Shown piece by piece: positions 2,611 to 11,108 of a stretch of 64,000 nt of DNA (within the stretch, counting starts at the first letter, position 1; every line of letters starts with the position of its first letter). Location: assembly GCA_002245135.1 (NCBI GenBank), contig NGBS01000305.1, forward strand, positions 1-64,000. Reading direction: 5' to 3'. The notes beneath the pieces were generated by a model, which saw nothing but the letters and a program-made list of their open reading frames with translations, had not been told where the DNA came from and searched no databases. This DNA is from Proteromonas lacertae (lineage: Eukaryota). A program made the position numbers and the translations under genes.

Positions 2611-3069
2611 TTTATCTTACACAAATTCACATTTTCAACAAATCATCACAATTATGCTCAATCACATCATTTTTAAATTTAAACTATTTTCTACATCTCA
2701 ATAACACCATCAGGTTATTCCACTCTGAAAAGGATTTGAAATCTGTCTCTTTCCTCATTTATTTTGTCCATATAAATGAAATTATTATCAAACATCAGTA
2801 TTATACACTTATATTCACCATAATATATCATTTACACATCAATTTCACAAAAATACTTTTATATTTATAAATATTTAGCCGTTTCTTTCATCATTTTTCA
2901 TTTTTTCTCTTTAAATCATCATTAAGCATAGATAATAATATAATAACATGAATAAATTGATATATAGTATATTTTCTTTTAATATAACATTATTAATATG
3001 ACATTAATTATTTATAAGAAATTATAAAAGAGAGAGTGATATATAAGAAAAAGAGTGAAAAAATAGTCA

Positions 3070-3187
3070 GAATCGTTCATATCTACAATAAAGCACCTCA
3101 TCCCATCAGAACTGCGAAGTTAAGATTGTACGAGCTATGATAGTAGTACAGTGGGGGACTCTGTGCGAAGTCATAGTAACGATTCTT
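3070..3187 (+). rRNA. 5S rRNA: 5S ribosomal RNA
   Basis: About 118 nt with a terminal helix GAATCGTT(3070-3077)/AACGATTC(3178-3185). Typical 5S segments ATCCCATCAGAACTGCGAAGTTAAG and TAGTAGTAC..GGGGGAC..GCGAA are present, followed by a T-run Pol III terminator. Confidence 0.92.
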
Positions 3188-3344
3188 TTTATTCTTTTTG
3201 TTTATTTCTTTTTGATTCATTCCTTTTATTATGTTGAAAAATACAACACTGGTTTTTACTAACCCAGTTTTAACTCTAACACTTAAGTAAACATCACTAT
3301 AACAATAATAATTATTTGTGTATATTTAATTATTCTTCATCAAT

Positions 3345-6300
3345 CTAATTTTCTTTTACTTCTCTTAATATATCTTTGAGAAAATTTTCATCTGATTCAT
3401 TCATTTTTACTTCTTCATCTCCTTTCCTCAATTCATAATAAAATAAATATGGAACAAATTCCTTGTATTTATCTTCTTCCAATGCAGATATATTATCTAT
3501 TTTATCATCATTAAATACATAGAAATTTTCATCAACAGTAGATTTACAAACTGCAATATAATGATGACCATGATAACAAGAGATTCCTTTTAAATCATAA
3601 ATATAATTTCCTACTATCAATTCTTTACGGTAATGAACAATTGGAATTACAACTGATTTTACATCTTCGTCCATCCTCAATAATTTCTTCACGTTTTTCT
3701 TAACAATCTCCTTCTCATTATCTTTTATAGAAACTTGAAGAACCAATACTTTAGTAAATTTATTTTCATAACAATCTATCATTTCTAATTTTTCATTAAA
3801 TAGTCTTTTGGCACTATTAAGATGATTTAACAGTATACCCAAAAAATGTAACACATCTTGTTGAGTATCTACTTTAAAGTCTTCTCCATCTATTGCACTT
3901 CTAAAATTTTGAAAGTTATTATCTTCATATAATATTGTTGTTGTACTATTACATAAAGAATTAAACAAATTTGAGAATTCATTTTCTATATTATTACTAT
4001 ATCGACCCTTTGGTATGTAGCAATCTCGAAATGGTTTGATATGAGCTAAGCATTGTAATGTTGAGTTCATGTAACAAGTATTATGAAAATATCTCTCAAT
4101 ACCACAAGTATCACCTACATCATTGACTAATACTGTATCTGGTGATGATGGTAGTGGATGTTGTTGTGGTAATGAAGATGATTGTATGCATTGTCTTTTT
4201 GAAAATGGTTCATCATCATCATTATTGTGTTGTGGTGGTGGTGGTGGTGGTGGTTGAAGTTGTTGTGTTAGTGGAGGTTGTGGTGATGGTGATGGTGGTG
4301 ATGATTCTATACGTGGTATTTTTGATGGTTGTTTATCATATTTATCATCACTAAATTCTTTATTTTTTTCTACTACATTAAGTTCTTTCAGTGGATTTCT
4401 GAAAAATAAAATACATATATCATTTCTTTCTCTTATACTATCAAATTGTATATAATTTTTCAAAATTGTATTAAAACTATCACCTTCTTTATATATATAT
4501 CCTTGTAAACTATAATCTCTATTTCTTATACTAATTTTATATTCTATTTCGTAGTTATAACCTATAGAATTAATCACATTTACAATTAGATAATCTGATT
4601 TTACTGTTATATCATTAAAATTTCTACTTTTTAATACTTTATTGTTATTATTTATTTTGAAGTCTATATGATGATTCTGTGAACTTCCTTTTTTTATCTT
4701 TAATTTATTATTAACATCTTTTAAATTTGTTTTATTTACCAATTTTTCTATAATTTCTATTGGTTCAATCTTAACATTACTGAATAACTCTTTCATTTTA
4801 TCTATTGCTTTTGACATTTCGTCTCTCTCATTATTCTTACTTTCATTCAAATACTTATTCAATGCTACTACCACTTCATCAACTTCTTTATTTTTTCCAT
4901 TCTTTACTTCTTCTTCTAACATATACTTGGCATTTTTGACATATTCTTTTAATTGGTTATCACTAAAAATTAAATCTATACATGACATAATACACCAATT
5001 TTTCTTTAAACAATCATTAATTTCATCAGCTTTTAATCTTTTGTTATTACATTTCATAGTTCTAAATTTAATTCCATTTTCTTCTTTTATACCATTTTCA
5101 AATTGAACAAAGTTATTAAATGCTTGGTTAGAATAGAAATTTACTATATCATTATTTGTTGCTATTAAATAATAAATATCTTTTCCAATTACACCATGAT
5201 ATTTCATCAATCTATCATAAATATTTTCATCAATTACTTCATCTCTATCGTTCTTATTTGATGGATGTATTATTACATTATTAATTGAATAAAAAATATC
5301 ATCATCTTTAGCAATAGCTAATTCACCAACATAATAACCTTCTCCTAATGCTTCTGATTTACAACAATTTTTGTTAAAGCTATAAAAAATGTCTTTTAAA
5401 CCATTATCAAATTCTGTTATTCCAACACCTGACCAATTTCTATTGTGAATTATTCTATACCATACTAATTCATTGAATAATATTTTATATAAAGGATGAT
5501 TTTGATTGTTTCTTATTTCGTTATAATAATAATCATGAAATAATTGACATTCTTTTCCACTTAATTTATGACTTACACAATTGTAAACGTATCTAAATAT
5601 TTCTTTTGAAACAAATTCTAATTGATATTTATCAATTGAATCATAATTTTTAACTTTATATTTAAATACATAATGTGATAAATCTGTATCAAATGTATCA
5701 TATTTAACATTATTTTTATATAATTCATTATCATTTTCTAAATTATCATCTGCATTTTGGCATGGACATAGATACTTCTTTATAAATTCATAATAACCCA
5801 TATCTGAAGCTATTGTATTTATGCATTTCGTATATATATCATTCCAATATTTTCTTCCTTCATAATAAACATCGTATATTGCTGCAAAATATAAATGTCT
5901 TGGAACATTGTTATATAATGGTAGAAATTTATCAATTACTTTGCCTAAATCGTGTGGTAAACATTTGTTTTTCCATTTCACTATTTCATCATCACTGCAA
6001 ATATCTAAATAGAAATATATCTTTTTATAATCATCAAATCTTTTTATATTTGAATAATTCTTACTATCTGGAGAACTTATATTTATAATTATTTCATATC
6101 CATTATATTCGTCAGAGGGAATATTAACTGAATCACATATGATTATGTCAGAAGAAATTTCATTTTTCTCTAAGTGATAATTATTTAAATAGCATTTATC
6201 TTCCTCTGGTATAACATCATGATCTTGCTTAGAACTCTTATAATATGCAAAACTTAATTTAGGAATTTTTAATTCTTTCTTCAATTCAATGAATTTGGTT

Positions 6301-10599: not shown

Positions 10600-10672
10600 T
10601 TTTAGTAATTATCAGTGGATATAAGAAAAGATAAATGAATAGAAGTGAATAGAAGAAAATAGAAGAATAGAA

Positions 10673-10867
10673 ATGTTCAGTATATTTCAATTCCTATATT
10701 TATCAAGAAAATTGAAGATGTTCAGTGTATTTCAATTCCTATATTTATCAAGAAAAGTAAAAATGTTCAGTATATTTCAATTCCTATAATTATCAAAACA
10801 ATTGAAGATGTTCAGTATATTTCAATTCCTATATTTATCAAGAAAATTGAAGATGTTCAGTATATTT
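10673..10867. repeat. 45-bp tandem repeat, ~4.3 copies, just 5' of the NTPase-REase-USP gene
   Basis: The unit atgttcagtatatttcaattcctatatttatcaagaaaattgaag starts at 10673, 10718, 10763, 10808 and 10853, with no spacers. Confidence 0.95.
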
Positions 10868-10877
10868 GAGTTTATAT

Positions 10878-11108
10878 TTTCGCTTTAAGTCATAATTACG
10901 CATAGATAATGATATAGAAACATGATTAAGACTTATTAGTTATTGATAAGAAATAGAAAAGATGTGATATATAAGAAATACATATAGAATACTCAAGAAA
11001 TTTTTATATCTACCATGGTATTACAATGGTGCACTCTGTGCTAATTCATAGTAACGATTCTATTTATTCTTTTGGCTTATTTTATTTTTCTTTCTTTTTA
11101 TTATGCTG
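10878..11108 (+). pseudogene. Degenerate 5S rDNA unit with internal deletion
   Basis: The upstream flank tttcgctttaagtcataattacgcatagataat matches the sequence starting at 2904. atatctac and the 3' end actctgtgctaattcatagtaacgattc match the 5S gene. The central ~60 nt are missing. The downstream T-rich flank is also homologous. Confidence 0.8.

Follow-up and report, generated by a model that had tools for sequence, protein, structure and literature searches.

A Crinkler/RHS-like gene between direct 5S rDNA repeats in Proteromonas lacertae, and a possible insertion with long target duplication

The closest described systems

Units of NTPase and REase of the Crinkler-RHS (CR) type have been described as mobile elements (PMC11342252, PMC5289972), and in the sections of these papers available to us the CR NTPase+REase proteins include Medea1-like mobile units (Zhang et al., 2016, via PMC5289972 and PMC11342252). 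As far as those sections go, the evidence for a mobile ancestry of Crinkler and RHS proteins lies in domain architecture or adjoining transposons, and not in element boundaries. We analysed a 64-kb stretch of DNA from Proteromonas lacertae (hereafter the window) that carries two related genes resembling CR proteins in their P-loop NTPase followed by an REase-type motif, in being lineage-restricted, fast-diverging paralogues, and in the transposon origin proposed for such proteins. Unlike CR proteins, they have no ubiquitin-like or secretion header, they encode two NTPase modules in swappable order, and the main gene ends in a C-terminal USP. They are also bracketed by long direct repeats, in contrast to CR proteins as reported: literature listings gave no long direct repeats around CR or RHS genes, and Zhang et al. 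(2016) with its supplements may describe such flanks.

Long repeats are better known around bacterial restriction genes, which can be inserted with duplications of 45-49 bp or longer and no other mobility gene (PMC2853133, in the part available to us). The window genes share with these RM insertions a small insert, a nuclease-type gene, long direct repeats of variable length and the absence of any other mobility gene, but they are eukaryotic, contain predicted introns and have no recognised methyltransferase partner, and 340 bp exceeds the examples in that part of the report. In Schizosaccharomyces octosporus, 87% of the wtf meiotic drivers are 5S-associated and many are flanked by direct 5S copies (PMC9562144). 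The main gene described here likewise lies singly between two direct 5S copies and has tandem repeats within its coding sequence, as do wtf genes of S. octosporus and S. osmophilus; yet the protein is unrelated, one 5S copy is a decayed relic, and the paralogue uses a non-5S repeat. The Starship Voyager (PMC9156397) is also mobile DNA at 5S rDNA, with mobility inferred in our case, but it is very large, encodes a tyrosine recombinase and sits inside the 5S gene, which it disrupts, whereas here the 5S gene is intact and no recombinase was found. Finally, Wolbachia CifB offers an analogy in a selfish system where CR-related REase domains are fused or linked to deubiquitinases (PMC11342252), although it is bacterial, has no P-loop modules and uses OTU/Ulp1 instead of USP.

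The main gene and its two 5S units

The left direct repeat (2897-3236, + strand) is a 5S unit composed of some 170 bp of upstream sequence, the 5S gene, a T-rich terminator and roughly 50 bp of downstream sequence. Its 5S rRNA gene (3069-3187, +) is intact and matches Rfam RF00001 over the full model, 1-120 (88 bits, E 1.8e-17). The right repeat (10871-11108, +) is a decayed unit in the same orientation that aligns collinearly with the left one, with 200 of 238 aligned bases identical, which puts the divergence at about 16%, deletions aside. The alignment score of 118 compares with a maximum of 43 across 564 same-size tiles of the window, and the upstream block alone scores 70 against a tile maximum of 38. 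The right copy has two internal deletions, one of some 40 bp and one of some 50 bp; most of the 5' half of its 5S is missing, the 3' part is changed at 8 of 48 bases, and Rfam does not detect this copy even at E<=10. As box A falls within the missing part, the relic would have no working Pol III promoter. A 45-bp tandem array (10661-10867, unstranded, 4.6 copies) separates the start codon from the right repeat; two of its units show dyad symmetry, and it may be a promoter or protein-binding array. The observation of a previous sequence-only reading that two 5S units bracket the gene and the array is confirmed, and the starts it gave (2904 and 10878) are about right, the few preceding bases overlapping the last array unit.

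Between the repeats we predict a single gene of three exons and 2395 codons (3345-10599, - strand; exons 10599-9127, 9095-6785 and 6748-3345). Under the standard code the region reads as three ORFs, and the single 7.2-kb gene of the sequence-only reading therefore holds only with two predicted GT-AG introns, whose splicing gives one stop-free frame: removal of the first (9096-9126, -, 31 nt) restores the frame, and the second (6749-6784, -, 36 nt) contains an in-frame stop, the frame being open once it is removed. A mitochondrial carrier gene nearby also shows short introns in this size range.

The predicted protein begins with module A (9325-10422, -), a P-loop NTPase of AAA+/STAND-like fold followed by an REase-type E...PxVD...QxT..H motif. 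A linker of low complexity, without any family match, contains an in-frame 198-bp tandem repeat (7019-7499, -; 2.4 copies, 98% identical) with a Cys-rich CxxC segment just upstream in the reading direction; the only methyltransferase signal, a sub-cutoff one (Methyltransf_31, E 0.03), also falls in this linker. Module B (5118-6677, -), another P-loop NTPase from the family of module A, has no recognisable REase motif. The C-terminus is a compact deubiquitinase domain of the USP family (3408-4109, -; Pfam UCH E 3.2e-19, 70 bits versus a cutoff of 23.9; USP4/USP2 chains), in which alignment to USP4 shows the Cys, His and Asn/Asp boxes all to be present. The Asn preceding the catalytic Cys of USPs has an oxyanion-hole role; in the same alignment this residue is replaced and accompanied by a one-residue insertion, and it is thus uncertain whether the domain would be enzymatically active. 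A second, degenerate USP ahead of the intact one was not supported. The NTPase-REase-deubiquitinase composition first proposed for the protein is amended in two points, with two NTPase modules rather than one and an REase at the level of a motif.

Several observations bear on a relationship of these modules to Crinkler and RHS proteins. The P-loop signature GxxxxGK[TS] is common to all four NTPase modules in the window, and residues 1-159 of the module A model match STAND/Cdc6 folds with Z 9.6-9.8 (best: rmsd 3.2, 115 aligned), the best Foldseek match having E 2e-3 and none reaching E<=0.001. A single-sequence fold was of no use (pLDDT 39), and the alignment-based model resolves the NTPase only, with the REase part below a pLDDT of 50. 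The Walker B of module A carries Glu versus Asp in relatives. No REase profile in Pfam matches module A; the E...PxVD...QxT motif is found both there and in a relative, P0017, and PxVD...QxT also in a fragment of the paralogue. We take motifs of this type to be typical of RHS/CRN nucleases. The Crinkler/RHS-like nature suggested by the sequence-only reading agrees with the ESM features of module A, 0.97 for a CRN cluster (RHSP on 13% of its members) and 0.93 for an RHS cluster (95%), at a recognition value of 2257, just below the guide value of 2300; the feature of module B, 0.81, is a lead only. The best NCBIfam match of P0017 is Trypano_RHS (E 0.005, below cutoff), and there was no Pfam RHSP match. 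The N-terminal ubiquitin-like/LxLFLAK header of secreted Crinkler effectors is absent: Pfam gives no Crinkler match, and the NTPase begins about 65 residues past the start. Word-index protein searches returned no module A homologues of near or longer length, and P0017 was the sole return of a profile search with module B; the deubiquitinase found in one relative is OTU-like. A tree of 14 modules, poorly resolved and with long branches, serves only to show that the window modules are distant.

A second bracketed gene and the search for known elements

About 45 kb away lies a paralogous gene (56287-60127, +) in which module B precedes module A, around 30-35% identical to the main gene over the best segments and with a predicted intron of 37 nt (58525-58561, +). 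Over the final ~500 bp its reading frame is broken up close to A-runs near positions 59600, 59810 and 59930, which may reflect either decay or assembly error. This gene is also bracketed by a direct repeat of 85 bp (55909-55993 and 60198-60282, both +), of which the first 56 bp are identical between the copies and all nine mismatches fall within the last 29 bp (p 2e-5); the 20 of 29 matches in this tail are equalled in 1 of 20000 random tiles. The repeat has no similarity to the 5S unit, and as a small RNA candidate it was rejected, with chance-level Rfam matches only and a fold z of 0.0. Words resembling the 45-bp array occur twice upstream of the paralogue and once at 11328, all chosen post hoc and uncounted.

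Both family genes of the window (2 of 2) are thus bracketed by direct repeats. Among the best 25 of 589 self-matches of the window at least 500 bp apart, four have E<=1.1e-6 and all four come from these two loci, the following ones having E>=1.3e-5 and being mostly of low complexity; at least nine further genes identifiable by Pfam lack brackets of this kind. The spacing is similar at the 5S locus and the paralogue: the start codon lies 271 and 300 bp, respectively, from the adjoining repeat and the stop codon 108 and 70 bp from the other one, and the gene fills 95% and 91% of inserts of 7.6 and 4.2 kb. A random interval of the same size would hold the entire second gene with p ~0.006, or a few per cent by gene counting. 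Since the two repeats are unrelated and the genes only about 30-35% identical over the best segments, the brackets would have arisen separately, and as that of the paralogue is non-5S, direct repeats at the borders would seem to characterise the family, with 5S as one of its landing sites, on a sample of two loci. No third copy of either the 5S unit or the 85-bp repeat exists in the 64-kb window.

The absence of transposase and RT, claimed earlier, is supported by searches of the window proteins with Pfam and other profiles, in which recombinase and integrase matches are absent as well, and the anatomy does resemble a single-gene insertion, with one gene between the two repeats. A DNA transposon with TIRs was rejected: there is no DDE transposase match, end-to-end alignments for terminal inverted repeats are at shuffle level (219 of 300 and 113 of 300 shuffles aligning equally well), and so is any end motif common to both cassettes. 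Retroelements to be compared are the rDNA-specific non-LTR type, such as the R elements, and the 5S-carrying LTR type, such as Cassandra, with near-identical LTRs and a working 5S promoter. Both types were dismissed on the lack of RT, the predicted introns and a relic without most of the 5S 5' half, and a Voyager-type Starship on the lack of a tyrosine-recombinase Pfam match and a 5S intact over the full model. A hairpin at 3248-3268, considered as a Helitron end, folds no better than shuffled sequence (42 of 200 shuffles doing as well), and no matching terminus was seen. Candidate related loci in metagenome contigs (83) and viral contigs (13 and 23) yielded none confirmed, and the one in prokaryote genomes (1 of 30), a 32-residue Walker A match, was discarded. 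The 5S patterns had no matches in metagenome and viral contigs, the window no plasmid match, and its proteins no PADLOC or PHROG matches.

Possible origins of the brackets

We favour, at a probability of roughly 0.4, the reading in which a Crinkler/RHS-like gene was inserted singly and left some 340 bp of the landing site in duplicate, 5S not being a specific target. We infer from the sequence that the family may move by its own nuclease with site duplication. The family REase, regulated or DNA-translocated by the P-loop ATPase, would make a break or widely staggered nicks, into which an intron-retaining DNA copy of the gene would be written by host repair; the predicted introns argue for a DNA rather than an RNA intermediate. 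Fill-in on both sides would then duplicate the target at variable length. After insertion one 5S copy would remain functional and the other decay, while purifying selection would keep the main gene open, and the USP, a likely accessory cargo, would counter ubiquitin-based silencing or degradation. The main gene has no stops, against a mean of 77 expected in simulation at 15% neutral change, and none of 200 simulated neutral runs were still open even at 2%; provided that the flanks have diverged where they now lie, purifying selection acts on the gene. With the gene open under selection and one 5S copy decayed, the main copy is likely old and retained. Repeats of 340/238 bp and 56-85 bp around inserts of 7.6 and 4.2 kb agree with the repeats over 30 bp and inserts under 20 kb of RM-type long duplications. 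Against the long-duplication reading, 340 bp is far beyond the examples in the available part of PMC2853133, and an exact landing on 5S would be improbable if 5S were not favoured or picked out by the scan. The clustered mismatches of the 85-bp repeat, the lack of an end motif or terminal inverted repeat common to the cassettes, the REase part with its low pLDDT and without a profile match, the Glu in Walker B of module A and the sample of two loci also weigh against it. The broader proposal, that header-less Crinkler/RHS-type NTPase-REase genes make up a class of autonomous mobile DNA elements in eukaryotes without transposase, recombinase, RT or terminal repeats, acting by staggered nicks with target duplications of 56-340 bp and a deubiquitinase cargo, we consider doubtful.

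Hitch-hiking of the wtf kind is the main alternative, though an unlikely one. Here a selfish or fast-evolving family member, whose protein takes no part in catalysing movement, would spread when the host recombines dispersed repeats homologously, by way of circles or non-allelic conversion, and both the 5S units and the 85-bp sequence would be repeats of this kind. The geometry is that of wtf drivers, often flanked by direct 5S copies (PMC9562144), which are a published precedent for the gene hitch-hiking in the 5S repeat unit that the sequence-only reading offered as its alternative, and 5S is naturally multi-copy. Against it, neither repeat occurs a third time in the window, and the repeat of the paralogue matches no known RNA. 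A perfect 56-bp core with a diverged tail is the expected trace of a crossover with a conversion tract between diverged copies, and the selfish element Medea1 is found among CR NTPase-REase genes (PMC11342252); against this, a repeat-gene-repeat donor is required once per repeat type.

The brackets may instead be passive scars of host break repair, with DNA fragments captured at a staggered break and the nuclease of ordinary, fast-evolving conflict or defence genes uninvolved. This agrees with purifying selection on the main gene under in-place divergence, but would not by itself explain why just these two window genes are bracketed, and we hold it to be improbable. Still less probable is the 5S-specific mobile element that was the main idea of the sequence-only reading, though a subfamily may have a 5S preference of its own. 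Elements that target 5S exist, such as Voyager (PMC9156397), and the preserved 5S is what a safe-harbour element would ensure; however, some 170 bp ahead of the 5S gene are duplicated too, which sets the repeat apart from an att core, the relic is without the box A part, and no recombinase was found. Only one of the two family members (two loci in all) lies at a 5S gene, and the sole paralogue, 1 of 1, is without 5S, an outcome that the sequence-only reading had itself named as refuting; 5S specificity is thus not supported, while the general idea of a mobile cassette gains from the bracket of the paralogue. Chance or an assembly artefact has very little probability. The paralogue has frameshifts beside A-runs and the left end of the window holds a broken gene, which suggests that the assembly may be imperfect, yet a collapsed or duplicated assembly does not produce 16% divergence with deletions between the 5S copies, nor alignment scores far above background.

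Two distant family members within long direct repeats provide a concrete and cheap test of self-mobilisation versus riding on dispersed repeats. Self-mobilisation with long target duplications would, if true, be a new mode of transposition in eukaryotes, and the autonomous-element reading would supply the missing genomic footprint of the transposon ancestry proposed for Crinkler and RHS proteins. Either outcome, self-mobilising or wtf-like, would account for the expansion of such families in gut protist genomes. The clustering of mismatches in the 85-bp repeat is not predicted by a target duplication that has simply aged; it would call for a subsequent gene conversion, or suits a recombination event involving diverged repeats.

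The 5S-bracketed cassette and its protein

At 27.2% GC, with short GT-AG introns (about 29-44 nt) and stops encoded in the DNA, the window is consistent with an AT-rich stramenopile of the gut, of the Blastocystis/Proteromonas kind (compare PMC12129017). An intact 5S rRNA gene (3069-3187, plus strand; 88 bits over the full Rfam model) is the only Rfam 5S in the window, a second copy giving no match there at E<=1 or E<=10. Local alignment pairs the region 2897-3236 with a same-orientation copy at 10871-11108 (200 of 238 aligned bases identical), with a score of 118 versus a maximum of 43 across 564 window tiles. 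Upstream of the 5S the homology extends for ∼170 bp, and it also takes in the gene's 3' part and the next ∼50 bp. The right copy is a decayed relic: the 5' half of its 5S is mostly gone, and the 3' part is changed at 8 of 48 positions (six of them from G). As the sequence-only reading had described, the two copies bracket one gene (3345-10599, minus strand) and a 45-bp tandem array (10661-10867). Two units of this array (10710-10737 and 10800-10827) hold a 7-bp dyad with a 14-bp spacer, and an 11-bp word of the unit occurs again at 11328, beyond the right repeat, both features having been chosen post hoc.

Three long minus-strand ORFs lie between the 5S copies and merge into a single frame of 2395 codons with no internal stop, given removal of two introns (31 and 36 nt) whose GT-AG splicing is predicted; neighbouring host genes have introns of similar size. 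Exon 1 encodes module A, one of two Crinkler/RHS-like P-loop NTPase modules, with a Walker A loop and an E...PxVD...QxT..H motif at its end. In the ESM Atlas it was grouped with Crinkler (0.97) and RHS (0.93) clusters, a suggestive placement that falls just under the recognition guide. The confident part of its structure model (16-row alignment) comprises the NTPase without the REase part, and resembles STAND/Cdc6-type folds (Z 9.6-9.8; best Foldseek E 2e-3). Exon 3 opens with the second NTPase, module B, which drew 10 of the 32 matches of a phmmer search against 1.84 billion representatives; all ten matching clusters are unnamed Logan proteins from contigs <5 kb. Along module A, one of these (P0017) gives an alignment at E 3e-15; it keeps the REase-type motif, its top NCBIfam match being Trypano_RHS, below cutoff. 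In the sequence alignment this motif is not recognisable in module B or in the closer relatives of that module. The protein ends in a compact USP domain (Pfam UCH, E 3e-19), in which the triad is intact and the oxyanion-hole Asn is replaced. No Crinkler header was found in the protein, and searches assigned its Cys-rich linker to no family. Based on these features and motifs, it likely belongs to the Crinkler-RHS-type NTPase+REase class. Pfam, PHROG and NCBIfam searches of the window proteins gave no transposase, RT or recombinase, in agreement with the earlier claim that neither of the first two was recognisable. P0050, also a module-B relative, has an OTU-like segment N-terminal to its NTPase (E 8e-4, below cutoff), which suggests that deubiquitinase cargo may recur in the family.

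A paralogous cassette between repeats unrelated to 5S

A module B profile search of the window recovered a second family gene (56287-60127, plus strand), in which module B precedes module A; it has ∼30-35% identity to the first in the best segments and one predicted intron of 37 nt. Its 3' end is frameshifted near A-runs, which may reflect decay or sequencing error. It lies between direct repeats (55909-55993 and 60198-60282) that are identical over 56 bases and then match at 20 of 29. This repeat has no credible Rfam match, has no third copy within the window and is unrelated to the 5S unit; the 5S specificity initially proposed is not supported. The two cassettes are similar in their distances from repeat to start (271 bp in the first, 300 bp in the paralogous one) and from stop to repeat (108 and 70 bp).

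The first locus had been chosen by the sequence-only reading, which leaves the second as the one independent test; bracketing of its gene by chance has p ∼0.006 by interval size, or a few per cent when genes are counted. A census of the window gave 589 self-matches with a spacing of 500 bp or more, and among the top 25, four are at E<=1.1e-6, all from the two cassettes. At least nine other Pfam-identifiable genes of the window lack such brackets. These two loci suggest that direct-repeat bracketing is a habit of the whole family.

Origin of the brackets

Two unrelated repeats in a repeat-gene-repeat layout need at least one target-duplicating event each. We favor, at a probability of roughly 0.4, an insertion with long target duplication: the family's own putative nuclease would start insertion at the target, and host repair would complete it, leaving the long duplication. 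The predicted introns favour a DNA intermediate. A precedent exists in restriction-gene insertion with long target duplication (PMC2853133), and Crinkler-RHS-type NTPase+REase units have been described as mobile (PMC11342252; PMC5289972). Against this insertion reading, the 340-bp duplication is long, a chance landing on a 5S gene is unlikely, the nine mismatches of the second repeat are concentrated at one of its ends (p 2e-5), end alignments found no common end motif or TIR between the cassettes, and the nuclease activity is itself putative. We regard the cassettes as putatively mobile; that the family is an autonomous element is less likely than not.

In the main rival reading, dispersed repeats recombine through the host machinery, as with the wtf drivers, which are flanked by direct 5S copies (PMC9562144); this reading accounts for the 5S as well as for the core-plus-tail pattern of the second repeat, and we consider it unlikely, if still a serious contender. 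Passive repair scars are less probable again. An element specific to 5S, at odds with the second repeat, is improbable; the bracketed feature of the first cassette is real, and an artefact is the least probable of all.

Among known systems, a Starship was rejected: Voyager interrupts the 5S and carries a recombinase (PMC9156397), whereas here the 5S is intact and no recombinase was found. AACRNL is mobilised together with hAT or mariner ends beside it (PMC12957317), and such ends are absent here. Spok offers another example of a nuclease fusion with selfish behaviour (PMC12693581). Among the papers listed by literature searches, none reports long direct-repeat flanks around Crinkler/RHS genes, a point on which Zhang et al. 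(2016) and its supplements may bear. An R element, a 5S-LTR element and a TIR transposon were likewise rejected as the identity of the cassette. R9 reportedly makes a long target duplication.

Age of the first cassette and neighbouring features

Simulated change of 15% introduced a mean of 77 stops into the first-cassette gene, versus none observed, and 0 of 200 runs stayed open even at 2%. If the flanks diverged in place, purifying selection has acted on this gene from the time it was bracketed; if the relic was already decayed on arrival, the age argument fails.

To the left of the 5S unit, 260 bp away, lies a foldback structure (1496-2633) whose arms (1566-1862 and 2235-2526) show 89% complementarity across 297 bp; it has no further copy in the window and is either MITE-like or an inverted duplication. 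Further left, a broken gene (300-1500) is split over several frames; its product is a surface protein rich in Cys, for which a weak match to a putative-Ig family was found (He_PIG, E 0.012). The region immediately right of the paralogous cassette (60827-64000) combines a short inverted repeat with GC-richer sequence and an ORF of 738 aa (61201-63417) without Pfam, PHROG, PADLOC or NCBIfam match, and is possibly another mobile element. The first genes right of the first cassette (12067-12668) could serve as synteny anchors: one ORF is deoxynucleoside-kinase-like (Pfam dNK, E 3.6e-5), and the other is small and basic, without a family match.
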